Shown: in pieces, positions 40,953-52,272 of the stretch
Layout of the letters: each line of letters begins with the position of its first letter
Numbering within the stretch: position 1 is the first letter of the stretch
Assembly: GCA_965208675.1 (NCBI GenBank)
Contig: OZ242351.1
Location: forward strand, 576,001-640,000
Direction of reading: 5' to 3'
From: Candidatus Poribacteria bacterium
GTDB taxonomy: Bacteria > Poribacteria > WGA-4E > PCPOR2b
Length of the DNA: 64,000 nucleotides
The notes under the pieces: model-generated
The model's database searches: none
What the model was told of the DNA's origin: nothing
What the model saw: the letters and a program-made list of their open reading frames with translations, nothing else
Made by a program: the position numbers and the translations under genes

Positions 40953-41987
40953 ATGCAAACTCAATCGATGACGAGTCGCCAACGTGTCCTTGCAGCGTTG
41001 CAAAGAGCACCGGTGGATCGGACGCCCATTTGCAATCCGACATCTGTGGCCACGGTGGAATTGATGGACTTGGTGGATGCGCCGTTCCCTGAGGCAAACC
41101 GGCAGCCGGACCTGATGGCACGGCTAGCAGCGACTGGTTATACTGAGTTAGGATTCGACACGATTATGCCGGTTTTCACTATTATTCAAGAGTCTTCCGC
41201 ACTCGGTTGCAAGATTCAATGGGAACAAAAGGATAACTGGCCCACTGTGAAAATGCGAGAACCGATTTGGGAAGACGTTGAGGACATCATAATTCCGCCC
41301 AATCTCTTAACTCACCAAGATACTCGCTGCGTGACCGATGCGATCCAAATCCTCAAAAAGGAGTACGGAGAAGAAGTCGCTGTGATTGGCAAGACGATGG
41401 GGCCCTGGTCACTCGGATACCACTGTTTCGGAGTCGAGCCTTTTCTGCTGCTGTCCTTAGACGATCCGGAAAAAACGAAACTCGCGCTGGATAAGATGAA
41501 AGAAATCACGATAGCGTTTGGGTTAGCACAGATTGAAGCCGGGGCGGATGCGCTAACCTTGCCCGATCACGCAACTGGGGATTTGGTCAGCGGCGAGTAT
41601 TATCAGCGGTACTTGCGGGATCTTCACATTGAGTTCGCCGAACGCCTTCCAATCCCGCTTATTCTACATATTTGCGGGCGCACGGTCGACCGTATGGAGT
41701 ACATCGCACAAACTGGTTTCGCAGCCTTCCATTACGACTCCAAGAATGCCCCGGATGAGTCTATGGCAGTGATGCAGAAGCGAATTGCCCTAGTCGGAAA
41801 TATCAACAATCCCGAAACGTTGTTTGCAAAGGGTCCTGAGGAAGTGCGCCAGGAAGTCTACAAAAATCTTGATGCAGGCGTCGAACTTGTAGGTCCTGAA
41901 TGTGCGATTCCGCTGCAAACTTCGATTGAAAACCTAAAAGAGATTCCCGCCGCCGTCAATGATTGGCACCATCAAAATGCGAGTTAG
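40953..41987 (+). CDS. MtaA/CmuA family corrinoid methyltransferase (URO-D fold)
   Basis: MTSRQRVLAAL..DRTP, GPWSL, AQIEAGAD, Zn motif LHICG...GPEC, LVGNIN. Confidence 0.9.
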   Translation: MQTQSMTSRQRVLAALQRAPVDRTPICNPTSVATVELMDLVDAPFPEANRQPDLMARLAATGYTELGFDTIMPVFTIIQESSALGCKIQWEQKDNWPTVKMREPIWEDVEDIIIPPNLLTHQDTRCVTDAIQILKKEYGEEVAVIGKTMGPWSLGYHCFGVEPFLLLSLDDPEKTKLALDKMKEITIAFGLAQIEAGADALTLPDHATGDLVSGEYYQRYLRDLHIEFAERLPIPLILHICGRTVDRMEYIAQTGFAAFHYDSKNAPDESMAVMQKRIALVGNINNPETLFAKGPEEVRQEVYKNLDAGVELVGPECAIPLQTSIENLKEIPAAVNDWHHQNAS

Positions 41988-42026
41988 ATTTAAGAAGAAT
42001 AAATTTGAAACTTAAAGAGACACACT

Positions 42027-42791
42027 ATGCCTGAAATTACCGACATCGTAAATGAGTTCATTAGGGATGAAATCGAAGAATACATTGAGCGTGCCGATGA
42101 ACGCACGCGCACTATCGCAATATTTGCCCAAGCAAGTACCGCGATGCAAGCGATTGCTGCCGCACTTGTTGACGGTGACCACCATACCGTGGATCAATTA
42201 ACAAAAGAGGCTTTGGACGCGGGTACCGAGGCTTTGGAGATTATGGACGATGGCCTCATCGCTGGGATGGGCATTGTTGGAATAAAATTTCGAGAAAATT
42301 TCATTTTCGTCCCGGAGGTCCTCGCTTGTGCACGTGCCATGAAGGCAGGTATGGCGTATATTGAACCGATTCTGTCCGCGTCGGGGATTGAGCCTATTGG
42401 TACCGTTATCATGGGGACAGTGAAAGGAGATCTTCACGATATTGGCAAGAATCTATGCATCATGATGCTTCGCGGCGCAGGATTCGTTGTACACGATTTG
42501 GGCGTCGATACTTCAGACGACGAGTTTATTGATGCCGTGGAAGAACACGGTGCGCCGGTGCTAGGAATGTCGGCACTTTTGACGACGACGATGCCCAACA
42601 TGGGTAAGACGATTGAAGCTTTCATTGATGAAGATCTCCGCGAAGATGTCAAAATTATGGTAGGTGGTGCACCGGTGACCCAGGAGTTTGCCGATGATAT
42701 GGGAGCAGACGGATATGGGAAGGACGCACTTGCGTGTGTGGCGTTGGCGAAGCAACTATTTGTAGAACTTAGAGACGAAGGAAGGTTATAG
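42027..42791 (+). CDS. Cobalamin-binding corrinoid protein (MtaC/MttC/MetH cap plus B12 domain)
   Basis: FVPEVL, GTVKGDLHDIGKNL, SALLTTT, GGAPVT, GADGY. Confidence 0.95.
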   Translation: MPEITDIVNEFIRDEIEEYIERADERTRTIAIFAQASTAMQAIAAALVDGDHHTVDQLTKEALDAGTEALEIMDDGLIAGMGIVGIKFRENFIFVPEVLACARAMKAGMAYIEPILSASGIEPIGTVIMGTVKGDLHDIGKNLCIMMLRGAGFVVHDLGVDTSDDEFIDAVEEHGAPVLGMSALLTTTMPNMGKTIEAFIDEDLREDVKIMVGGAPVTQEFADDMGADGYGKDALACVALAKQLFVELRDEGRL

Positions 42792-42980
42792 TTGATCCTA
42801 CACCAGTTTTGCTTAATGCTCCCACCTCGCTATTCTGATGAAGCAACTATGCAAAGATTGGCCAAGCAAATGAATTAGCGCATACTTGGACTTAATCGCT
42901 TATCGGCGAAGTTGTCTAGCTCGGTTTTAGTCACTGCCAAAATTCAAGTCTGTGCGTTGAATTTGCGGATAAGACTCATT

Positions 42981-44894
42981 ATGCTGAAAATCCCCAAGGA
43001 AGAATACCGGAAACGGTTGGACAAAATTACGGAATTGTTCGCTAGCATCGTGGGGCACGCCGATGAACAAGCCGCATATAGGTGTCCTTACAAAAACCGG
43101 TTCGATCAATGTACCGCCAAATTCGGCTGTAGAAATCAGCGTAAACCTCGTGAAAAAGGGAAGTCATTGATGTGCGGCGGCGACGATAAGCTAGACTATC
43201 GCGGTGCTTGGGATACTGAGGCCGATGTAGGGGTTTTTATTGAGAGAGATGGCGATTACGGAAAGGGTACCATAACGCATGATGACACAAAGCGTAAACT
43301 TATGGCCGGCAAAACGGTTTTCGACTATGCTGACGAATTGGCGGTACAGGTGCCGACCTCCTGTTTGCGTACGGGGCAATGTCACGAGTGTATAGTTGAG
43401 ATAAAGCAAGGCATAGAGGCATTACGTCCGCGCAACGAAGCTGAGTCGTTTCTACGGGAAAATTACCGCCTTGCTTGTCAGGCAGTTGTCGAGAACCCTG
43501 ATGTCGATGTACAGTTTTCGCCGCTGCGCAGAAAGCCCAGGATTCTCACACTTACCCAAGAAAAGCCCGTTGAGCTCAAACCGATGGTCACCCGTCAGGG
43601 CGATACAGTCTACTACGATAGGGAAGCTATCGACACATACCGCGGGCACCTTTACGGTCTTGCCATAGATTTGGGTACCACAACCGTCGTAATGGATTTG
43701 GTAAATCTTGAGACCGGCGAAAGCGTAAGCGTCAACTCCTTTGAAAATCCTCAGCGGTTCGGCGGCAGCGATGTGATGCATCGTATTTCATATGATGGCG
43801 TGTTTGCCGGTGAGTTACGCAAGGCGGTTACCAATGGTCTGAATCACGAAATCGCCGAGATGGGAAAACGGTTGGGCTTCGTCCGTCAGGAAATCTACGA
43901 GATTGTTGTTGCGGGCAACTCGACTATGCGCGATATTTTCTTCAAGCTGGATGTGCAGAGCATCGGCCAAAAGCCCTACAAGTCCGTGATTGAACATGCG
44001 TACATCGCAGAGGAACTCAACACGACTTCGCTTGTTGAGAAAACGCGGCGATTAGGGCTTCGGGCGAATCCAAGAGCCCGAGTTTATGGGTTGCCGTTGA
44101 TTGCAAGCCATGTGGGTGCCGATGTTGCAGCCGATTTGGTTGCCATTGACATGGCATCGCAGAAAAAAGCCGTCATGCTGGTAGATGTTGGTACTAACAC
44201 TGAAGTCGTTGTGGGACACGCAGGAAGGCTGATAACAGCGTCTTGTCCGGCAGGTCCCGCGTTTGAAGGAGGCGGAATTAAATTCGGTATGCCAGGGTAC
44301 GAAGGAGCCATCGAGTCTATTCGGTGGGGTGACGGTCATATCAACTATGACACTATTGGCGGTATTGCACCACAAGGAATCTGTGGATCGGGATTAATCG
44401 ACCTGTTGGCAGAACTTCGCCGCCATAATCAGATGACAGCAAAAGGTGTTTTTGCTGATAGAAAACAGTATGACATGACCGTTGTGCCTGAACATGGCAT
44501 TACGCTTTCCCGGGAAGACATTAGCAACTTGGCTCAAGCCAAGGCAGCCAATTACTGCGGACAATTTATTGTCTTGCGAAAGTTCGGTATCGACCCAACG
44601 GAAATCAATCGGCTCTATTTGGCCGGTGGATTCGCAAATTATGTGGATGTTCACAATGCCGTCGAAATCGGTTTTCTTGCGCCAGTGCGCGGCGATAGAA
44701 TCGTCAAAGTTGGAAACGCGGCGGTGCAGGGCGCGCGGGAAGTTCTCCTATCACGGAAAAAGCGTGACGCTATTGAGCATCTGGTTAAAGGAATCGAACA
44801 TGTCGAACTAGAGACAACGCCCGATTTCTTCGAGGTGTTCGTGGAAGGGTGCCAGTTTAAACCCATGCCGAAGGAGTTAGCTGACATATCATGA
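42981..44894 (+). CDS. ATP-dependent reductive activator of corrinoid proteins (RACo/RamA-like, ASKHA, DUF4445) with 2Fe-2S domain
   Basis: SCLRTGQCHEC...RLAC, DLGTTT, NPQ..GGSDV, GNSTM, DVGTNTE, AGPAFEG, GICGSG, LAGGF, GNAA. Confidence 0.93.
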   Translation: MLKIPKEEYRKRLDKITELFASIVGHADEQAAYRCPYKNRFDQCTAKFGCRNQRKPREKGKSLMCGGDDKLDYRGAWDTEADVGVFIERDGDYGKGTITHDDTKRKLMAGKTVFDYADELAVQVPTSCLRTGQCHECIVEIKQGIEALRPRNEAESFLRENYRLACQAVVENPDVDVQFSPLRRKPRILTLTQEKPVELKPMVTRQGDTVYYDREAIDTYRGHLYGLAIDLGTTTVVMDLVNLETGESVSVNSFENPQRFGGSDVMHRISYDGVFAGELRKAVTNGLNHEIAEMGKRLGFVRQEIYEIVVAGNSTMRDIFFKLDVQSIGQKPYKSVIEHAYIAEELNTTSLVEKTRRLGLRANPRARVYGLPLIASHVGADVAADLVAIDMASQKKAVMLVDVGTNTEVVVGHAGRLITASCPAGPAFEGGGIKFGMPGYEGAIESIRWGDGHINYDTIGGIAPQGICGSGLIDLLAELRRHNQMTAKGVFADRKQYDMTVVPEHGITLSREDISNLAQAKAANYCGQFIVLRKFGIDPTEINRLYLAGGFANYVDVHNAVEIGFLAPVRGDRIVKVGNAAVQGAREVLLSRKKRDAIEHLVKGIEHVELETTPDFFEVFVEGCQFKPMPKELADIS

Positions 44895-44973
44895 CTTTAG
44901 AAAGTGTTGGGCAGCTCACGTACCAGATAAGAAGCCTACAGGAAAGCTGACCACATATCTTTAGGAGACGAAG

Positions 44974-46011
44974 ATGAAGCTTAACGGTCTAGAATTCATA
45001 ATTATTGGTGAAAATGTCCACACTACTCGTGTGGTGCGTCGAAAAGGGAAGCTCGTTACGAATAACGCTGACGGCGTCGAATCCATTCGCTATCTAGATA
45101 AAAACAAAAAACGCCGGTATCTCGTCATCCCCGATAGCATCAGGAAAACTCAGGACTACGAGGAAGGGCGCATTAAACACGTCAAGATCGCCATTCAGGC
45201 AGCCATGACCGAAAAAAATCCTCATGCCGGTGAAGGGCTCGAGTACCTGATGCGACTAGTGCAACGTCAGTTAGACGCCGGAGCCGATTACTTAGACTTG
45301 AATGTAGACGAAGTCTCACTGCATCTTGAGGAACAAAAGGCTGCCATGAGATGGCTTGTGCAGACCGTGCAGGAGATGTATTCTATTCCATTGTCGGTGG
45401 ATTCATCCAATACGGAAATCATACAAGCGGGACTTGAGGCTGCTGATGGCAAAGATGCCCAAACTATGCTAAATTCAGCAGCACCGGAACGCCTTGAAAC
45501 CTTAGATCTTGCGAAACAGTATCATACGAGGGTCATTGTTCAAGCAGCGAGCGTAAACGGTATGCCAGAAAACGCAGAAGAACGGGTGTCCAATGCCTCT
45601 TTCATGGTGGAAAAAGCCTTAGATAAAGGGATTGCGATTCATGATATTTTCATTGACCCCGTAATCTTTCCAATCTCGGTCGACAGCCAATACGGCAATC
45701 ACTGCTTCGATGCGATACGGCAAATCCGCGAGAAATATGGTCCCAATCTCCATATTAGCGGTGGTTTCAGCAACGCCTCATTCGGTTTGCCATGCCGCCG
45801 CCTCATTAACGATGTATTTATGATGTTAGCCATTGAAGCAGGTGCTGACAGTGGGATCATCGATCCTGTCACGAGTGACCCTCGAAAGATTATGGAAATG
45901 GATCGACAGTCAATGCCCTACAAACTCGCTGAAGATATGCTTCTGGGTAGGGACGAATATTGCGCTAATTTTATTAAAGCATATCGAAAAGGGGAATTGG
46001 AGCTCCGCTAA
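44974..46011 (+). CDS. Methyltetrahydrofolate:corrinoid methyltransferase (MeTr/AcsE, pterin-binding domain)
   Basis: IIGEN, Q..AGADYLDLN, LSVDSS, LNS, IDP, GFSNASFGLP, IIDP. Confidence 0.9.
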   Translation: MKLNGLEFIIIGENVHTTRVVRRKGKLVTNNADGVESIRYLDKNKKRRYLVIPDSIRKTQDYEEGRIKHVKIAIQAAMTEKNPHAGEGLEYLMRLVQRQLDAGADYLDLNVDEVSLHLEEQKAAMRWLVQTVQEMYSIPLSVDSSNTEIIQAGLEAADGKDAQTMLNSAAPERLETLDLAKQYHTRVIVQAASVNGMPENAEERVSNASFMVEKALDKGIAIHDIFIDPVIFPISVDSQYGNHCFDAIRQIREKYGPNLHISGGFSNASFGLPCRRLINDVFMMLAIEAGADSGIIDPVTSDPRKIMEMDRQSMPYKLAEDMLLGRDEYCANFIKAYRKGELELR

Positions 46012-46014
46012 ACC

Positions 46015-46293
46015 GTGGCTGAATATCAAATATTGTACTGGAAAGGCATTCCAGCCCAGGTGAGAGTTTTTGAGGGAAAGAAAACAATCTCGCGAGAGAT
46101 GCCCGCTCGTTTCCAAGCTGACATCGATCGAATCGCAATGCAAGAAGGTTTGTACGGAAGTGACAACTATCTTGACCAATGGGAATGGACCGAGAAACGC
46201 CAGCGGACCGGCGATGCCAAACTAGTATTAGATTCGCTTTTACGTGAACTCGAAACCGATTACGACGATAAATTTAGAAAACCGAAAAATTAA
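46015..46293 (+). CDS. PF13769 (Virulence_fact) family small protein
   Basis: YQILYWKGIPAQV...RFQADID.IAM..G..GSD.YLDQW. Confidence 0.8.
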   Translation: MAEYQILYWKGIPAQVRVFEGKKTISREMPARFQADIDRIAMQEGLYGSDNYLDQWEWTEKRQRTGDAKLVLDSLLRELETDYDDKFRKPKN

Positions 46294-46301
46294 TTCCAAT
46301 A

Positions 46302-47348
46302 ATGCCCAAATTCTCACCTGAGACGCTTCGTCAAATCGGGTACCAGCTTTTTGAAGCCGCGGGGTGTAAACCCGAAGATGCGCACGTAGTGGTTAATCAC
46401 CTGATCGAATCCAATCTCTTTGGTCATGATTCTCACGGCGCAATTCGGTTTGGCGAATACCTGCGCGCTATTCGAGAAGGCCGGTTCCAACCTCGTGAAA
46501 CACCTGAGACTGTAAGCGAAAACCCATGCACTGCGGTCGTTGACGCCCACGGCGCGCTAGGGCAAATCGGCGCGTCCTATGCGATGAACTTGGCAATTGA
46601 AAAGGCTGGCCGCCACGGTGTTGGCACGGTGACCTTACGGAATACAAGCCATGTTGGGCGCGTGGGCGCCTATCCCTTAATGGCCGCTCAGACAGAGATG
46701 ATTGGTCTTGCCTTTGTCAATGCGGGCCGGCTCGGTTACCAAATAGTTCCCTTTGGAGGCATCGACGGCCGCCTAAGTACCAACCCGATTGCATTTGCCG
46801 CCCCGCGCCGGGAAGCCCCGCCTATTTTTGTTGATATGACTACCTCGGTATCTGCTGAAGGTAAAATTCGGGTTGCTATCAACCAAGGGAAGCAGGTTCC
46901 GGAGGGTTGGATCATCGATGCTCAAGGCAATCCCACCACGGATCCAAAAAAATTTACAGGTCCTCCGCCCGGAGCCATCCTCCCATTAGGCGGAGTAGTA
47001 GCACACAAGGGTTACGGTTTGAGTATTGTAGTAGAACTCTTGGGCGGTGCCTTGAGCGGTCAGGGTTGTGCCGCTGGTGAACGTTCAATGGCAAGCAATG
47101 GCGTGTTATTTACCGTATACCACATTGAGCATTTCACCACTCTTGATGCTTTCTATAACGAAGTGGAATCACTGCTTCATTACGTCAAATCGAGCCGACT
47201 AGCCCCCGGGTTTGTGGAAATCTTAGCGCCTGGTGAACCTGAATTTCGTAACGCTCAACGGAAGACGGTCGAAGGAATTGATATTGATGAGACAACTTGG
47301 AATAATATCTGCCTAGAAGCTCTCGCCTTCGGGATTAATCTAGAATAA
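46302..47348 (+). CDS. Ldh_2 family (malate/L-lactate/sulfolactate-type) dehydrogenase
   Basis: GHDSHG, SHVG, TNPIAFAAP, DMTTS, G.PTTDP, HKGYGL, PGEPE. Confidence 0.93.
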   Translation: MPKFSPETLRQIGYQLFEAAGCKPEDAHVVVNHLIESNLFGHDSHGAIRFGEYLRAIREGRFQPRETPETVSENPCTAVVDAHGALGQIGASYAMNLAIEKAGRHGVGTVTLRNTSHVGRVGAYPLMAAQTEMIGLAFVNAGRLGYQIVPFGGIDGRLSTNPIAFAAPRREAPPIFVDMTTSVSAEGKIRVAINQGKQVPEGWIIDAQGNPTTDPKKFTGPPPGAILPLGGVVAHKGYGLSIVVELLGGALSGQGCAAGERSMASNGVLFTVYHIEHFTTLDAFYNEVESLLHYVKSSRLAPGFVEILAPGEPEFRNAQRKTVEGIDIDETTWNNICLEALAFGINLE

Positions 47349-47400
47349 TGGTGTACCAAAGCAATGTAATGGTCGAAAATTTAAAATTAGAGCGCTTCAA

Positions 47401-48402
47401 ATGAGGACGTTTCTTGAGAGGTTAGCCGACCCAAGCCCTATGATTTACGACGGCGGATTTGGCTCAGAATTGTTCGCCAGGGGGATAGAGCTGACGAATA
47501 GCGCACTTGCAAACGAACTGCATGCAGACGCGGTAATGGATATTCATTCTGATTATATTGAAGCAGGTGTTAATGCCCTAGGAACAAACACATTTGTAGC
47601 TTCGAGGCTGCATCTTGAAATGGCAGGAATAGAGGGACATGCGGCGGATGAAATCGCCCAGTTGGCGGTAGAACATGCCAAGGTAGCGGTTGAAAAAGGT
47701 GGCAAGGAGATATATATCGCAGGATCGATTGGGCCTTCGCCCGGCGCAATTGAAGCCGATAGCGGCGACATAGATTTTGGAATCCCGAACGCTGTTGTCA
47801 GGGATGTTTACGAGAGGCTGGCGAACATTCTGGCAGATGGCGGCGTTGACTTTTTCTGTATAGAAACTATGTTTTCCGCGAAGGAAGCCGCAATAGCAGT
47901 CGATGTTACCAGAAAATACGGGCTTCCTATCGCCGTAAACTTGACATATAAGCACACGAAGGACCGCGCTAGCGGCAATGTCGTCTACCGTACAGATTGG
48001 GGGCATTCGGCGGCGGATTTGTTAGGTATCTTGTCAAGCGGGGAGTTCTCCAATGGTGATAATCTCTTGGATTATGTCCACATATTAGGTCTAAATTGTG
48101 GCGCGGAGGTCAAGCATGAGCAACACACTGGGATGCCCTATGCGATAAATGGAATACAACAGTTGAAAGACGCATTGGCGATGAACAATGTTCAACCGAA
48201 ACGGTTGATGGCTTATCCAAATGCAGGTATGGCACGCCTGGACGAGAATCAGCGTACATATTATTCGCAATCCGCAGAAGAAATGGTGATTTACTTACCA
48301 ACTCTTCTCCAAGCAGGTGCATATTTTGTCGGTGGATGCTGCGGCACTGGATTTTCGCACATTAAAGCCTTTCGTGAAATTATCTCCCCGATAAACAATT
48401 GA
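47401..48402 (+). CDS. Homocysteine S-methyltransferase family protein (stand-alone MetH Hcy domain/BHMT-like)
   Basis: DGGFGSEL, H..YI.AG, TNTF, AGSIGP, IETM, GLNC, YPNAG, GGCCGT (three Zn-binding Cys). Confidence 0.92.
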   Translation: MRTFLERLADPSPMIYDGGFGSELFARGIELTNSALANELHADAVMDIHSDYIEAGVNALGTNTFVASRLHLEMAGIEGHAADEIAQLAVEHAKVAVEKGGKEIYIAGSIGPSPGAIEADSGDIDFGIPNAVVRDVYERLANILADGGVDFFCIETMFSAKEAAIAVDVTRKYGLPIAVNLTYKHTKDRASGNVVYRTDWGHSAADLLGILSSGEFSNGDNLLDYVHILGLNCGAEVKHEQHTGMPYAINGIQQLKDALAMNNVQPKRLMAYPNAGMARLDENQRTYYSQSAEEMVIYLPTLLQAGAYFVGGCCGTGFSHIKAFREIISPINN

Positions 48403-48450
48403 CGTAATGCCGCTCCAATCCAGATAGCCAGCGGTACGTAGCAGTTTTGA

Positions 48451-48479
48451 TTGACAATCTCCCACTAGAGTCGTATACT
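48451..48479 (+). promoter_or_regulatory. Near-consensus sigma70 promoter for the tandem FBP aldolase/phosphatase gene
   Basis: TTGACA-17 nt-TATACT. Confidence 0.7.
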
Positions 48480-48674
48480 AACAATTTATAAAAATGCTGT
48501 TGCCTACCTTCTTTAGGCTTTTGTTTTTCCCGTCTTAATACATGTCTCAAGTGAACACTTGCCTAACTTCAGTATGTATAGTTTAGTCTAATAAACGGCG
48601 ATTCCGAATTCATCCGCGGTTTTGAAAATGGTAAGATGTATAAGGGGGGTGACAGCAACTTTGGAGGTGAATGA

Positions 48675-51212
48675 ATGTCCGATTCCTTTGATAAATCTAG
48701 AGAAAATCGTCCACACGGACAATCTAATGTCACCATTGTTACTCTCGATTTGGGGCGTTGGATTCATGGTGAATTGCCCAATCAGATTGTAGAATTGGCA
48801 CGCAATGAACTTCAAGGCGGACTATTAGAGAACCGGTTGCGAGGTGCGTGGGTACGAGGATTTGCGCAGGATTTGCATCTGCACATAACAACCTACAACG
48901 AAGATTTCATCGTAAACGGCGCGTATACGAATCATCCCATTGAGGCCGCGGTGCGAGCCGCTGTCAATGCGGGTCTCATTGCGCTGGAACAAGCCGTTAA
49001 AATGCAACGCTGTACTGACGCGGCGAAGGAAGTCCTGACACTTGATACCGAACAGCAAGCCGAGGCGTTGGGGCCGTATTACCTAAACTTCCCCTTTACC
49101 GAGAGAGGCGCCGAACCCATATTTGCTGCGAAGGCTATCAACGGAAGCTGGGGATTCTTCAACCGCGCCGTTTTTAATCTGTTTTTCAACCCGGATAAAG
49201 GTTCCGGGAGGCGCATTGAGGGAAATGAATTTTTAGGTGTAGTTGAATCAATTGCGGATCTCAAGAACGGCGTGGATAATGTACGAACCTATGAGTTTGG
49301 CCCTGGAAACCTTAACGAAATGGTCGCGTTAATTGCCGACGCCGATGAATGGCGTCTCAGCCGCGTTTACGCAGTCCGTGGTAAGTTCGGTGAAAGTGAA
49401 CTGCGCGGAGAACCCGCCCTTGTGGTCGAAGGTGCCAAAAACCCAGTTTTGGTAGGTCGCTCTCAGTCAGGTCTTCCCGCTGTCGGTGAATTCACTCAAG
49501 CCGTTGGAGAATTCTGCTTTGGACCGGGAGGCGGCGCAGGCAAATACCGGGTTGGACTCATACCCGTTAATTTTGAGGAGGCGCGCTGCTATTCCATTCC
49601 TCAAGGTACAGCGAAAGTAGTCGCCTATGCCTATCAGTCCTACGGCTACGGAAAGATTCCGAGTGATTCGGATGTGGTTGACGTTTTTGACCAAAACCGC
49701 CCTGAGACTAGGCGTTTACAGCGAGATGCAGCAGACCTAATAGGGAAAATGGTCAGTCACGGGGAGTTTGAGCCTTACGTGAACCCAATGGCCGCAGAAG
49801 ATACCGCCTCACAGGAAGCGCAACATTTGGAGGCGCGATTTGAATCCATTCCTGAAATTTCCGACCCCTTGTTAGAAGCCGCCAACAAAAAGGCTAAATT
49901 CACACTTTCAGATATCAAAGCCGACAGCGGCGGCAAAGTCGGACATACCACACCGCCTCACCTGTTCCGATATGTCGCGGAAGCTAGCCTGCAAGAAGGG
50001 AAAGATGCAGGGCTAATTTTTGAATCGTCCGAAATCATAGAAGTCGGGGACGACGGACATCTGTTGATGAGTCATAACCGCGGCACCGATAGCAATGATA
50101 TTCATCTTTTCGCTTACCGTACTTTTTTCCGGCAAGTGTGGGTAGCGGAGGTGTTAGGACATAAGTGGTATGGTTTGGGGCAGGATTTGGTCGGCGAAAC
50201 TACGGCTGGACACCCTACCGAAGAATTGGCAAACCTTAACGATGCTTTCCTCAAATTATTGCCCAAATTCCTTCCTACTGTGGAACGTGCGCATATACGT
50301 CGGCTAGAAAATGCCTATAACGTGTGGAAGACTGGTGAAGGACAAGGGCATAAAGTACTTCACGTTTTCTCAGGAAACATCTCGGGACAAGGTCCCGGCT
50401 TTGCGGAACTCCCGTTGGTTCGCCCTGGCAGAATTGGGTTGCTGGCAATTGACAAAACAGGTCCCTCAGCTTTTAATTTGCCAATATGGTGGAGTCTAAA
50501 TCAAGCATCAGCATCGGGCGCCCTCACTTCCTATCTCAACCGAACCGGGGGAGTAGGCTGCGTACTGGAGATTTGGGATGTGGAACATCATCGTCGAATT
50601 TTCTTAGATTTCAAGAGTGAAGCAGAAATTGCACAGCATTTACTTGGCGCGGTCGAAAGGTTTAACATCAAGCGAATATGGAGCCGTCGAGGAAAAAACT
50701 GGAACGCAGAAAGCCCATCGGACGGACTGGGTGAGGTGCTTTTGGCGGCCTCCACAGAAAAGCTCGCGGTCATTACCGGCGGAGAATACCGAGGGAAAGA
50801 TGACCCTGTTTTGCTTGCAGTGGAGCCTTTGGCGGACGCGCTCAACCTATTCATGCGCGACTGCTTTTATATGACCCAGGGAGATGGCCGAGGTTCTCAT
50901 TTCATGTTCCCGACGCCGCTTCCCTTCCAAGATGCTATTGCGACGGTCAACAGCCGCGCCGTGGCGGTGTCCGCTTGGGTAAGTATAAATTCTGACGGTC
51001 AGATTTGTGGGTTGCAAGACGTTTTTTCGGATGCAATCTACGAAACTGCACGGGATCGAGCTTACCGGTTCAATAAAGCAATCTGGGATGCTCAAGGTGG
51101 CAACTTTATTCCCGTCGGTGTAGGTTCAGCCAAGGTAGAACAATCCTATCCTCTGGCAAAAACGCTGGACCGCATCACCGCCTCAAATTCCGAGTTTGCG
51201 TCCAAGCACTAG
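48675..51212 (+). CDS. Tandem-duplicated class V fructose-1,6-bisphosphate aldolase/phosphatase-like protein
   Basis: C-half (from about 49899): TLSDIKADSGG.VGH, VGDD, YGLGQD, FSGN..GQGPG.AE, DKT.P.AFNLP, STEKL, EYRGKDDPV, RGSH. N-half: FTERGAEP, FN..FNP, PVLVGRSQSGLPAVGE, HGEFEP. GGAGG RBS. Confidence 0.88.
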   Translation: MSDSFDKSRENRPHGQSNVTIVTLDLGRWIHGELPNQIVELARNELQGGLLENRLRGAWVRGFAQDLHLHITTYNEDFIVNGAYTNHPIEAAVRAAVNAGLIALEQAVKMQRCTDAAKEVLTLDTEQQAEALGPYYLNFPFTERGAEPIFAAKAINGSWGFFNRAVFNLFFNPDKGSGRRIEGNEFLGVVESIADLKNGVDNVRTYEFGPGNLNEMVALIADADEWRLSRVYAVRGKFGESELRGEPALVVEGAKNPVLVGRSQSGLPAVGEFTQAVGEFCFGPGGGAGKYRVGLIPVNFEEARCYSIPQGTAKVVAYAYQSYGYGKIPSDSDVVDVFDQNRPETRRLQRDAADLIGKMVSHGEFEPYVNPMAAEDTASQEAQHLEARFESIPEISDPLLEAANKKAKFTLSDIKADSGGKVGHTTPPHLFRYVAEASLQEGKDAGLIFESSEIIEVGDDGHLLMSHNRGTDSNDIHLFAYRTFFRQVWVAEVLGHKWYGLGQDLVGETTAGHPTEELANLNDAFLKLLPKFLPTVERAHIRRLENAYNVWKTGEGQGHKVLHVFSGNISGQGPGFAELPLVRPGRIGLLAIDKTGPSAFNLPIWWSLNQASASGALTSYLNRTGGVGCVLEIWDVEHHRRIFLDFKSEAEIAQHLLGAVERFNIKRIWSRRGKNWNAESPSDGLGEVLLAASTEKLAVITGGEYRGKDDPVLLAVEPLADALNLFMRDCFYMTQGDGRGSHFMFPTPLPFQDAIATVNSRAVAVSAWVSINSDGQICGLQDVFSDAIYETARDRAYRFNKAIWDAQGGNFIPVGVGSAKVEQSYPLAKTLDRITASNSEFASKH

Positions 51213-51593: not shown

Positions 51594-51635
51594 TTGACAA
51601 AGCGGAAGTCATCTGATATACTTAACGGCGTTAAG
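51594..51635 (+). promoter_or_regulatory. Sigma70 promoter of the tetR gene overlapped by a palindromic operator
   Basis: TTGACA(51594)-17 nt-TATACT(51617); CTTAAC-GGC-GTTAAG at 51621-51635. Confidence 0.8.
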
Positions 51636-51666: not shown

Positions 51667-52272
51667 ATGGGCGTTAAAGAACGCAGAAAAAGGGAAAAAG
51701 AGCAGTTACGGCGTCAGATTCTTGCTGCCGCGCGAGAGTTGTTCGTCAATGAAGGCTACGAAAACGTCTCTATGCGAAAGATTGCCGATAAGATTGAGTA
51801 TTCGCCGACGATGATTTACCTATACTTCAATGGAAAGGCAGATCTTTTGGATTCCGTTTGCCAAGAAACTCTCCTGAACTTATTGAATACATTTGAACTA
51901 CTGAAAAAGGATAAAAGCGACCCCGTTGAGAACCTGAGAAAAAGTGGTAAAGCCTATGTCGAATTCGGTCTAAAGTACCCGCAGGATTATAAGCTGACAT
52001 TTGTCGTCCGTCCTCAGTACCAGAAGGGTTTAGGTCTGCCAGAAGGATCGATTGGCGAAAGAGTGTTTAATTACCTGAGTGCAATGGTCTCCGAATGTGT
52101 TCGACAGAAGACCTTCCGCCAAGTGGATGTCGAAATCACCGGTCAAGCGCTGTGGTCAGCAGTTCACGGAGTTACCATGCTCCTGATTGATTTCCCCGAT
52201 TTCCCCTGGACAGCCAAAGATAAATTGATTGACACGGTGATACACACGATGATCGGAGGTTTGAAGGCGTAG
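51667..52272 (+). CDS. TetR/AcrR family regulator (WHG-type C-terminal domain)
   Basis: ILAAARELF...GYENVSMRKIA..IEYSP.MIYLYF..K; WSAVHG. Confidence 0.94.
   Translation: MGVKERRKREKEQLRRQILAAARELFVNEGYENVSMRKIADKIEYSPTMIYLYFNGKADLLDSVCQETLLNLLNTFELLKKDKSDPVENLRKSGKAYVEFGLKYPQDYKLTFVVRPQYQKGLGLPEGSIGERVFNYLSAMVSECVRQKTFRQVDVEITGQALWSAVHGVTMLLIDFPDFPWTAKDKLIDTVIHTMIGGLKA

Follow-up and report, generated by a model that had tools for sequence, protein, structure and literature searches.

The window analysed here, a stretch of 64,000 nucleotides, encodes at 48675..51212 (+) an 845-residue ORF with an ATG start, in which two FBPase_3 domains are fused: an N-type domain that appears catalytically dead and a C-type domain that appears live, as indicated by Pfam, the ORF call and orthologous ORFs. 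We infer that its two halves probably form an obligate pseudo-heterodimer sharing a single composite active site, with residues donated in trans, and that the chain works as a gluconeogenic FBP aldolase/phosphatase. Canonical FBP aldolase/phosphatase, which may be an ancestral enzyme of gluconeogenesis according to some discussions, is a textbook example of how a single active site can remodel itself for two reactions. In the archaeal enzyme, a homo-octamer, the Gln242/Ser243 segment would be given by the neighbouring subunit at the dimer interface to bind the 6-phosphate of the substrate.

Two FBPase_3 domains in a single chain

The whole protein matches the Pfam profile PF01950 (FBPase_3; length 361, gathering cut-off 25 bits) with 245.7 bits in three stretches. 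The two matches anticipated by the original prediction were obtained when the halves were searched separately: the N-half (aa 1-400) alone scores 65.3 bits (E = 7.5e-18, profile positions 81-360 of 361) and the C-half alone 185.9 bits (E = 1.6e-54), and PDB entry 3t2b matches the C-type domain with E = 1e-26. A direct BLASTP comparison of the N-half with the C-half gave only E = 0.006 (26% over 146 aa) and thus pairwise sequence alone is insufficient to establish homology. Nonetheless, the kinship of the N-half with the class V enzyme, as first proposed, is upheld by its own Pfam match and by its fold: the AlphaFold2 (AF2) model of the N-half alone (pLDDT 88.3) resembles 3r1m in Foldseek (E = 7.5e-22, TM 0.70/0.78). 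The full-length AF2 model (pLDDT 84.7, pTM 0.85) matches FBPA/P entries only in a structure search (TM by target 0.73-0.82), its low-confidence parts being confined to residues 1-10, the QSG loop of the N-half and the active-site loops of the C-half. Against the NCBIfam equivalog model NF041126 (FBP_aldo_phos), a score of 233.1 bits was obtained, below the curated cut-off of 520. Under NCBI's rule, the protein therefore does not count as an equivalog of the canonical enzyme, and a low score is expected since each half matches only part of that model.

Upstream of the ORF, a sigma-70-like promoter match (TTGACA-17-TATACT, 11/12; a consensus match only) lies at 48451..48479 (+), about 195 nt 5' of the ATG, and a GGAGG ribosome-binding site, likewise a consensus match, at 48663..48667 (+), with the ATG 7 nt further on. 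Both sequences had been put forward as an argument for expression; they are present as described, as consensus matches only. The five promoter-like sites of the region do not exceed the count in shuffles (mean 3.8, sd 1.8). Positions 48400-48700 gave no Rfam match to a leader RNA at E up to 1. Neighbourhood comparison revealed no conserved operon partner among the loci compared: the clusters common to many loci are the gene itself and spurious overlapping ORFs, while true neighbour genes are common to close relatives only.

Conserved residues are partitioned between the two domains

The C-type domain (aa 405-845; 49887..51209, +) was aligned to the enzyme of T. neutrophilus (Tn), whose equivalent residues are given in brackets. 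All of its motifs lie on the + strand: K415-A-D417...G423-H424 at 49917..49946 (D11, H18), G458-D459-D460 at 50046..50054 (D52, D53), G502-Q503-D504 at 50178..50186 (Q95, D96), D593-K594 at 50451..50456 (D132, K133), the Schiff-base loop Y705-R-G-K708-D-D-P-V712 at 50787..50810 (Y229, K232, D233, D234) and R739-G-S-H742 at 50889..50900 (R266-H269). The metal and phosphate ligands (Tn D11, H18, D52, D53, Q95, D132, K133, D233 and D234) are thus all found in this half, and are invariant. Near the C-terminus, E822-Q-S-Y825-P826 (51138..51152, +) forms a lid in which Y825 is the likely equivalent of Tn Tyr348 and S. tokodaii (St) Tyr347, an equivalence that is not certain given an alignment shift of 1-2 residues.

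Directly after the Schiff-base loop, where canonical enzymes carry R-x-Q-S-G-x-P-A-x-G-E, the C-half has a degenerate remnant five residues shorter, L713-L-A-V-E-P-L-A-D721 (50811..50837, +), so that this segment does not lie in the same half as the catalytic residues. The original prediction, that the C-half keeps its metal and catalytic motifs and has lost this segment, is thereby confirmed, and its coordinates are exact (the Lys708 codon starts at 50796, that of Arg262 at 49458). The canonical ERxxEP segment is also lost from the C-half, which reads VRPGRIG at this position. After GQDL comes a family-specific helical insertion (aa 508-563, about 55 residues; 50196..50363, +), seen in the alignment and in the AF2 model, which the first reading of the sequence had not mentioned.

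The N-type domain (aa 12-395; 48708..49859, +) has the full FBPA/P fold without the catalytic residues (Pfam, AF2, Foldseek). By alignment it lacks the K-A-D..G-H, GDD, GQD, DK, YxGKDD and RGSH motifs; the first five had been reported as lost, which holds apart from D66, the second Asp of GDD (Tn D53) and the sole surviving metal/phosphate ligand there. Ala254 occupies the position of the Schiff-base Lys, and Y291 stands in for the His of RGSH. What the N-half does keep, and the C-half does not, is R262-S-Q-S-G-L-P-A-V-G-E272 (49458..49490, +; Tn R240-E250), whose retention had been correctly spotted, and E143-R-G-A-E-P148 (49101..49118, +). The latter segment had escaped the first reading of the sequence.

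Reference positions were taken from five canonical enzymes, among which 70 are invariant. Thirty-six of them are found in the C-half only (metal, phosphate and loop residues), 13 in the N-half only (those of ERGxEP and RxQSGxPAxGE and one Gln, Gln321), eight in both and 13 in neither. Conservation was then scored in 123 short members of 700-900 aa and 42 divergent long forms. In the N-half, R262, Q264, S265 and G266 are each present in 123/123 short forms; R144 is found in 122/123 short and 39/42 long forms, and Q264 in 41/42 long forms. All 123 short forms share the C-half residues K415, D417, H424, D459, D460, Q503, D504, D593, K594, Y705, K708, D709, D710, S741 and H742, and the catalytic residues of this half are present in 40-42 of the 42 long forms (41 for the K-A-D...G-H motif, 42 for D593-K594, and 41 for the Schiff-base Lys and proton-shuttle Tyr, K708 and Y705). 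Y825 is kept in 122/123 short and 38/42 long forms; R739 is replaced by Asn in 23/42 long forms. Being conserved family-wide, in short and long forms, the complementary pattern is far beyond chance, and the complementary motif loss first described in this one protein stands.

Distribution and origin of the fused family

Of 46 genome loci under about ten phylum-level labels, 37 contain a complete fused ORF; seven of the other loci run off their contig and two are broken. An assembly artefact or frameshift fusion is thus rejected. Forty-two longer proteins (936-4971 aa) contain the same N-C module; P0187 and P0201 among them have signal-peptide-like N-termini, and P0181 contains two N-C modules. 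Hence, the architecture is not unique but that of a large family, already auto-annotated "fructose 1,6-bisphosphatase". In the paper texts searched, we found no description of a doubled FBPase_3 protein and none of the role of Gln242/Ser243. The accessible part of a review (PMC12525153) lists bacterial phyla with the bifunctional enzyme and mentions neither Acidobacteria nor a doubled form.

Searches for short N-half-like (58 matches) or C-half-like (109 matches) proteins did not find a stand-alone half: the matches are fragments only, mostly from short contigs. P0145, P0156 and P0157, candidates for a split-gene form, were rejected as truncated calls of a fused clade rather than stand-alone N-type proteins; in this clade P0182 has 894 aa, and loci L001-L006 and L042 have N and C in one frame.

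In a tree of individual domains, 23 N domains group together (SH-aLRT 100), as do 23 C domains (99); the subclades of the two groups match, and the N and C domains of ten long forms fall inside their respective groups. This points to a single duplication and fusion, after which the N and C domains diverged together; the origin by duplication and fusion proposed at the outset fits the tree as a single event.

FBPase complement of genomes carrying the fused gene

Searches of the window's genome and of five other complete gene-bearing genomes were negative for FBPase of classes I and II and for class II aldolase; class III FBPase was covered in the window's genome only, and the control of the class I aldolase search was silent. 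In the same six genomes every PF01950 match lies inside the fused ORF. Within one family (f1), the fused gene is present in 4/4 genomes of one genus (g1), where class I FBPase is found in 0/4, and in 0/8 genomes of its sister genus (g2), where class I FBPase is found in 6/8. Across the phylum, 68 of 81 sampled genomes (families f2-f8) are without class I, II and V FBPase, so another route exists, and the argument that the fused protein must be the only FBPase is weak in this phylum. The window's genome also encodes a phosphofructokinase (399 aa), which might run in reverse if it depends on PPi.

Predicted N-C interface

The N-half and C-half were modelled as a complex, the interface concerned being the intrachain N-C pair only. 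Three runs gave ipSAE values of 0.58, 0.62 and 0.64 (best of three controls 0.00; partner pLDDT at least 85), values which may reflect the model's memory of solved archaeal oligomers. Between the three runs, the overlap of contacts drops to 0% in the worst case, and the interface residues given here are those of the best run only. In that run, the top-ranked contacts are helix-helix packing between N340-348 and C790-797, and equivalent residues are in mutual contact (C793 with N347), a signature of a two-fold axis. N263-264 and N269-271 contact C420-426, the loop holding His424, and the N-half loop comes near the start of the lid (C808-811). ERGAEP residues 145-146 and 148-150 and residue 536 of the insertion also lie within the predicted interface. 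N-half invariants are enriched at this interface (14 against 6.0 expected, p = 8e-4); C-half invariants are not (11 against 9.4 expected, p = 0.32). As to the earlier proposal that the QS loop completes the C-half site, it is matched by the contacts of Q264 and A269-G271 with G420-T426 in the best of the three runs, but contact agreement between runs falls to 0%; R262-E272 has pLDDT <50 in the full-length model.

A probable composite active site and alternative explanations

In the mechanism we favour, tandem duplication and fusion of an ancestral gene would have placed the two subunits of a two-fold dimer in one chain, and one of the two active sites would then have been abandoned. Whatever serves the surviving site would have been retained. 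The C-half would hold the catalytic and metal residues in cis, and the N-half would contribute only those segments that extend across the interface (ERGxEP, RxQSGxPAxGE and Gln321), while the mirror-image residues for the lost site decayed. The outcome would be one composite active site per 845 residues, in an obligate pseudo-heterodimer to whose C-half site, we infer, the N-half loops are donated in trans. Most likely, triose phosphates would be condensed to FBP through a Schiff base on Lys708, and FBP then hydrolysed to fructose 6-phosphate for gluconeogenesis.

The N-half might instead be a structural partner only, its segments conserved as interface and catalysis occurring wholly in cis in the C-half. 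The enrichment of N-half invariants at the predicted interface would suit this reading, as would the top-ranked contacts, which are helix packing and not loop-to-site. We consider it unlikely, however, because the exact canonical R-x-Q-S-G-x-P-A-x-G-E is kept directly after the Schiff-base-loop position, Q264 persists in the long forms although most other N-half positions drift, and the C-half has deleted precisely this segment yet keeps every neighbouring catalytic residue; the predicted contacts of the loop with the His424 loop and near the lid start argue the same way. Just as unlikely, though compatible with a composite site, is that the degenerate N-half pocket serves as an effector site for allosteric control, for which the class V family is not known. 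Polar N-half residues away from the predicted interface are nearly invariant in short forms (of 123: D66 121, H68 119, H70 121, K153 121, N163 122, R164 122, Y291 120 and H362 123), among them the surviving GDD Asp and the Tyr in place of the RGSH His. In long forms most of them are not (of 42: D66 21, H68 5, H70 19, K153 16, R164 7, Y291 17 and H362 27, with N163, at 39, the exception), so any effector site would be clade-specific. The same residues could equally be fold-stabilising, and no regulatory gene occurs among the neighbours compared.

A changed substrate or activity (e.g. another sugar bisphosphate, aldolase activity only, or a phosphoprotein) seems the least probable of the alternatives. 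It would account for the NF041126 score far under the cut-off, for an insertion beside the active site, for signal-peptide-like N-termini on long relatives, which are odd for a cytoplasmic gluconeogenic enzyme, and for a phylum most of which manages without FBPase classes I, II and V; Coxiella CinF, as described in its report (PMC8740755), offers a precedent. Against it, invariance extends to every residue tested for both canonical activities, among them the Schiff-base Lys, Tyr705, the Asp pair and the likely lid Tyr; the fused gene and class I FBPase are distributed in a complementary manner between sister genera; and a low equivalog score is what one would predict when each half of a protein matches part of the model only. 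A broader scheme, slightly more credible than a changed activity and still improbable, would combine a cis/trans dissection, the 13 N-only residues being on loan to the neighbour's site, with a pocket rebuilt as effector site in the 700-900-aa clade (D66/H68/H70/K153/R164/Y291/H362) and later recruitment of the module into exported giants for chemistry outside the cytoplasm. If true, this would be the first class V FBP aldolase/phosphatase with allosteric control.

Discussion

As far as the alignments tell, a design with one live and one dead half is conserved across many bacterial groups. If the fused form indeed has one site, it identifies, without mutagenesis, the residues that act across the subunit interface, and such an asymmetric single-site version may ease mechanistic study of the enzyme. 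Such a form would also correct the annotation of 830-900-aa proteins now labelled plain "fructose 1,6-bisphosphatase" and supply an evolutionary link to the dead-plus-live modules of exported giant proteins. It is further relevant to how pathways are reconstructed in Acidobacteriota, Poribacteria-labelled genomes, Latescibacterota and others, where the six complete genomes searched yielded no other FBPase of the classes covered.

Each half shares the fold of the archaeal class V enzyme (1UMG and 3R1M from S. tokodaii; 3T2B-3T2G from T. neutrophilus), a four-layer alpha-beta-beta-alpha sandwich, and the C-half has the T. neutrophilus equivalents listed above, from D11 to R266-H269. Unlike the archaeal enzyme of ~360-390 aa, the ~845-aa protein has two domains on a single chain and just one full set of residues, its RxQSG and ERxxEP segments sit in the catalytically dead domain, and its live domain bears the 55-residue insertion. 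A precedent for repurposing within the same Pfam family is CinF of Coxiella burnetii: this FBPase_3 homologue with conserved residues no longer acts as an FBPase but as a protein phosphatase, and needs the lid Tyr for activity (PMC8740755). CinF, however, is a single-domain secreted effector of 382 aa (PMC8740755), whereas nothing ties the window protein to a host. Closer at hand, the long forms P0187, P0201 and P0181 repeat the order of N-type and C-type domains and the complementary residue pattern, with extra flanking regions; the window protein, in contrast, is the bare module without flanking regions or a signal-peptide-like N-terminus. In mammalian hexokinase I and eukaryotic phosphofructokinase, likewise products of tandem duplication, one half is catalytic and the other degenerate, the dead half being chiefly regulatory. 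The fused protein is like them in its duplication and fusion and in having kept a half that is catalytically lost; the folds are unrelated, and here the kept residues reach the partner's active site in the model.

Both halves of the protein are FBPase_3 domains

The open reading frame at positions 48675-51212 (+) of the window encodes 845 residues, for which the original prediction expected two FBPase_3 domains (Pfam PF01950, the class V FBPase or FBP aldolase/phosphatase, FBPA/P) in one chain. Against the whole protein, the Pfam profile matched in three stretches (245.7 bits). Scanned alone, each half matched it separately: residues 1-400 (N-half) scored 65.3 bits over profile positions 81-360 of 361 (E 7.5e-18), while residues 401-845 (C-half) reached an E-value of 1.6e-54. 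A pairwise BLASTP comparison of the halves was weak (26% over 146 residues, E 0.006), and the homology of the N-half is therefore based on profile and fold. An AlphaFold model of the N-half only (22-row alignment; pLDDT 88.3, pTM 0.88) matched the seven FBPA/P entries in the PDB, with the S. tokodaii (St) entry 3r1m at E 7.5e-22 (TM 0.70 when normalised by query, 0.78 by target). Beyond these seven, no PDB match with real fold likeness was obtained, the next being at E 8.7e-3 and TM 0.14. Both halves, the N-half included as had been proposed, belong to FBPase_3 by Pfam and by fold.

Reciprocal loss of canonical residues

To place residues on crystal numbering, both halves were aligned to a canonical 379-aa enzyme, P0178, itself near-gapless against the T. 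neutrophilus (Tn) and St chains. By this alignment, C-half residues D417 and H424 correspond to Tn D11 and H18, D459 and D460 to D52 and D53, Q503 and D504 to Q95 and D96, D593 and K594 to D132 and K133, Y705, K708, D709 and D710 to Y229, K232, D233 and D234, and R739 to H742 to R266 to H269; Tyr825 in the C-terminal lid is also conserved. A helical insertion of ~55 residues (aa 508-563) follows G-Q-D-L in this half. Right after K-D-D-P-V-L-L, the C-half reads A-V-E-P-L-A-D, five residues being missing versus the canonical R-x-Q-S-G-L-P-A-V-G-E, while R262-S-Q-S-G-L-P-A-V-G-E272 of the N-half is the canonical segment letter for letter. The canonical E-R-x-x-E-P segment is present in the N-half (E143 to P148), with V-R-P-G-R-I-G instead in the C-half. 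The C-half thus has the metal and catalytic motifs without the R.QSG.PA.GE segment, as first read from the sequence, and the positions assigned to Lys708 (50796) and Arg262 (49458) are exact. The N-half, described as having lost its motifs, does keep RSQSGLPAVGE and has no KAD, GQD, DK or YxGKDD, but the loss of GDD is incomplete, D66 (= Tn D53) remaining as the sole surviving catalytic residue.

Complementarity was scored over 70 alignment positions invariant in five canonical single-domain sequences, a position counting as kept in a half if ≥90% of the 26 family members compared have the same residue there. The C-half alone retains 36 of these positions and the N-half alone 13; a further 8 are retained by both halves (six Gly or Pro, two Asp) and 13 by neither, which upholds the proposed complementary motif loss. 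The N-only set (P0178 numbering) is V49, E121, R122, P126, A132, P151, G156, P185, R241, P247, A248, E251 and Q299. Because one of the five canonical references, P0256, has an aberrant C-terminus without the Schiff-base Lys and Tyr, these two positions fall outside the 70, making the count conservative.

Conservation was tabulated from 165 proteins of at least 700 aa aligned to the family HMM. N-half R262, Q264, S265, G266, A269 and G271 are each found in 123/123 short forms (700-900 aa), as are all fifteen C-half catalytic positions (K415, D417, H424, D459, D460, Q503, D504, D593, K594, Y705, K708, D709, D710, S741 and H742), these 123 including close relatives and not being independent. The 42 long forms (936-4971 aa) are far more divergent. 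Their C-type catalytic residues are present in 40-42 of 42, and in their N-type domain Q264 is kept in 41, G266, R144 and N163 in 39 each, R262 in 37, and S265 and E143 in 35 each. D66, H68, H70, K153, R164, D174, K175 and Y291 of the N-half, invariant in short forms, drift in long forms. Thus, the N-half is not decaying, and the residues that last longest in it are precisely the canonical segments absent from the C-half.

Modelling of the interface between the halves

The archaeal Gln-Ser segment presumably binds the 6-phosphate of the neighbouring subunit's substrate, and a composite active site had been proposed on that basis. The full-length model (pLDDT 84.7, pTM 0.85) is of low confidence only at residues 1-10, N-half loop 265-272 and C-half segments 565-571, 704-707, 737-741 and 811-819; other than residues 1-10, these are the counterparts of mobile active-site loops. 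Folded as separate chains, the two halves gave ipSAE values of 0.58, 0.62 and 0.64, versus 0.00 in the best of three controls, against a mark reached by 58/80 solved complexes and 2/110 mismatched pairs that is only rough here, a custom alignment having been used. Partner pLDDT was at least 85. This pass may be due to resemblance to archaeal oligomers of known structure.

In the best run, the N-half interface comprises residues 145-146 and 148-150 (ERGAEP), 173-176, 180-183, 263-264 and 269-271 (QSG loop), 319-321 and 329-348, and that of the C-half residues 420-426 (His424 loop), 495-499, 747-760, 790-797 and 808-811 (lid start). Contact pairs include C423-N270, C422-N321 and C497-N321. The top-ranked pairs of this run, C793-N347 and C797-N344, join equivalent helix positions and therefore indicate a two-fold axis, since a residue touching its own counterpart marks one. 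This interface holds more invariant residues of the N-half than expected (14 versus 6.0, Fisher p = 8e-4), but no such enrichment is seen for those of the C-half (11 versus 9.4). The models thus support, without proving, a C-half site lined by the retained N-half segments from the other side of a pseudo-two-fold interface. The proposed composite site is supported insofar as the QSG loop touches the His424 loop in the best run, but contacts agree by as little as 0% between runs.

The fused protein defines a family

A word-indexed search found 233 proteins at E ≤1e-3 among 8000 candidates scored. Among the 120 matches listed, lengths are 747-875 aa, identities 58-95% over near-full length and names, where given, 'fructose 1,6-bisphosphatase' or 'FBP aldolase/phosphatase'. 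A scan with one genome per species gave 46 loci, most labelled Acidobacteriota, the others Candidatus Poribacteria, Latescibacterota, Gemmataceae, Elusimicrobia, Nitrospinota, Anaerolineae, Dehalococcoidia, Binatia and Thermodesulfobacteriota-like bins. The ORF is complete at 37 loci (841-904 aa, one of 1725 aa), runs off the contig end at 7 and is broken at 2, by frame changes in L020 and by a stop close to the contig end in L033. At L015 (Candidatus Poribacteria), the halves are 96% and 95% identical to those of the window protein. No stand-alone N-type or C-type gene was found, short matches to either half being fragments; three seemingly complete N-type proteins were rejected as stand-alone genes, the full form of their clade being fused (P0182; L001-L006, L042). 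Fused FBPase_3 is a family and not a one-off. In L020 (6013-8526, labelled Acidobacteriota), the C-type part lies over three reading frames, reflecting a decaying gene or assembly errors.

The N-type plus C-type module also occurs within much larger proteins (42 representatives of 936-4971 aa, including P0181, P0187 and P0201), which the domain tree links to the family of the window protein. P0181 (3495 aa) carries two complete N-C modules in tandem, and P0187 and P0201 have signal-peptide-like N-terminal segments. In the 7 long forms scanned, no Pfam domain other than FBPase_3 was found. The 1725-aa ORF at L007:4033-9210 (labelled Elusimicrobia), with ~650 extra residues before the module and ~220 after, represents a form in between the lone module and the giant proteins.

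In an unrooted domain tree with long branches, built by a quick search from 23 N-type domains, 23 C-type domains and only 5 canonical ones, all N domains lie to one side of a branch (SH-aLRT 100) and all C domains to one side of another (SH-aLRT 99), with the canonical enzymes adjoining the C group. The two subtrees mirror the same subclades, and N branches are longer than C branches. This is the pattern that one duplication and fusion followed by co-divergence would predict, in line with the origin first suggested. P0259 (377 aa), a live single-domain FBPA/P with KAD, GDD, GQD, DK, YxGKDD and RGSH all present, also has an N-half-like FNRA...NPD..SG motif and could be near the ancestor of the duplicated family.

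Genomic context and metabolic role

The fused gene is solitary, flanked by a corrinoid methyltransferase cluster and a TetR gene, and no neighbour conserved across lineages was seen around the fused gene loci. The upstream same-strand row (40953-48402) encodes a URO-D-like methyltransferase, a corrinoid (B12-binding) protein, a RACo-type reductive activator with a 2Fe-2S domain, a pterin-binding protein, an Ldh_2-family dehydrogenase and a homocysteine S-methyltransferase-like protein, and looks like a corrinoid-dependent methyl-transfer (demethylation) system. A promoter-like site (TTGACA-17-TATACT, 48451-48479) lies ~195 nt 5' of the ATG of the fused gene, and in the stretch between them (48486-48674) a hairpin with a T-run (48502-48518 plus tail) lies ~25 nt past the -10 box. 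The hairpin is possibly part of an attenuator-type leader, or else it just terminates the gene upstream; the leader region gave no match in Rfam. A further TTGACA-17-TATACT match, identical in both hexamers and with a TG preceding the -10 box, lies at 51594-51622, directly upstream of the TetR-family gene (51667-52272).

The window comes from a genome of one 4.89-Mb contig (96.4% complete), in which the fused gene is the only PF01950 match and no class I, II or III FBPase or class II aldolase was found. For class I aldolase, the search control was silent; NCBIfam assigns the best DeoC-family match to the LsrF-type thiolases (316.5 bits, cut-off 297). There is one phosphofructokinase (399 aa). 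Five further complete genomes that carry the fused gene, under five different phylum labels, gave 0/5 for class I FBPase, for class II FBPase and for class II aldolase, and all 16 of their PF01950 matches lie within fused ORFs.

Of 81 genomes sampled in the window's phylum, all 4 of the window's genus carry the fused gene and none of the 77 others does. This confinement points to lateral acquisition; the nearest relatives are labelled Acidobacteria. Within family f1, the distributions of the fused gene and class I FBPase are complementary: the window's genus has the fused gene in 4/4 and class I in 0/4, and the sister genus in 0/8 and 6/8, respectively. No class I, II or V FBPase was found in the 68 genomes of families f2-f8 (81 sampled, including G006-G085). 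Another route to fructose 6-phosphate must therefore operate in the phylum, a reversible PPi-dependent phosphofructokinase being one candidate in f2-f8, and the fact that no other FBPase is recognised carries limited weight here, since most of the phylum lacks classes I, II and V.

Comparison with known enzymes

No description of a doubled FBPase_3 was found in the openly searchable literature, and the part of a 2025 review that enumerates bacterial phyla with the bifunctional enzyme leaves a doubled form unmentioned (PMC12525153). Overall, the two-domain architecture with complementary loss is confirmed and its interpretation supported in part only. The NCBI equivalog model places the window protein outside the canonical FBP aldolase/phosphatases, at 233 bits against a cut-off of 520. 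In canonical FBPA/P the RxQSG segment lies within the catalytic subunit, whereas the catalytic half of the window protein is without it. The fused protein probably acts as the canonical enzyme does, except that the dimer is built into one chain and only one of its two sites has been retained. Enzymes are known to evolve by duplication and fusion in which one half loses its activity, as in hexokinase I and eukaryotic PFK. Fused FBPase_3 is alike in its route; what is peculiar to it is the reciprocal complementarity at residue level.
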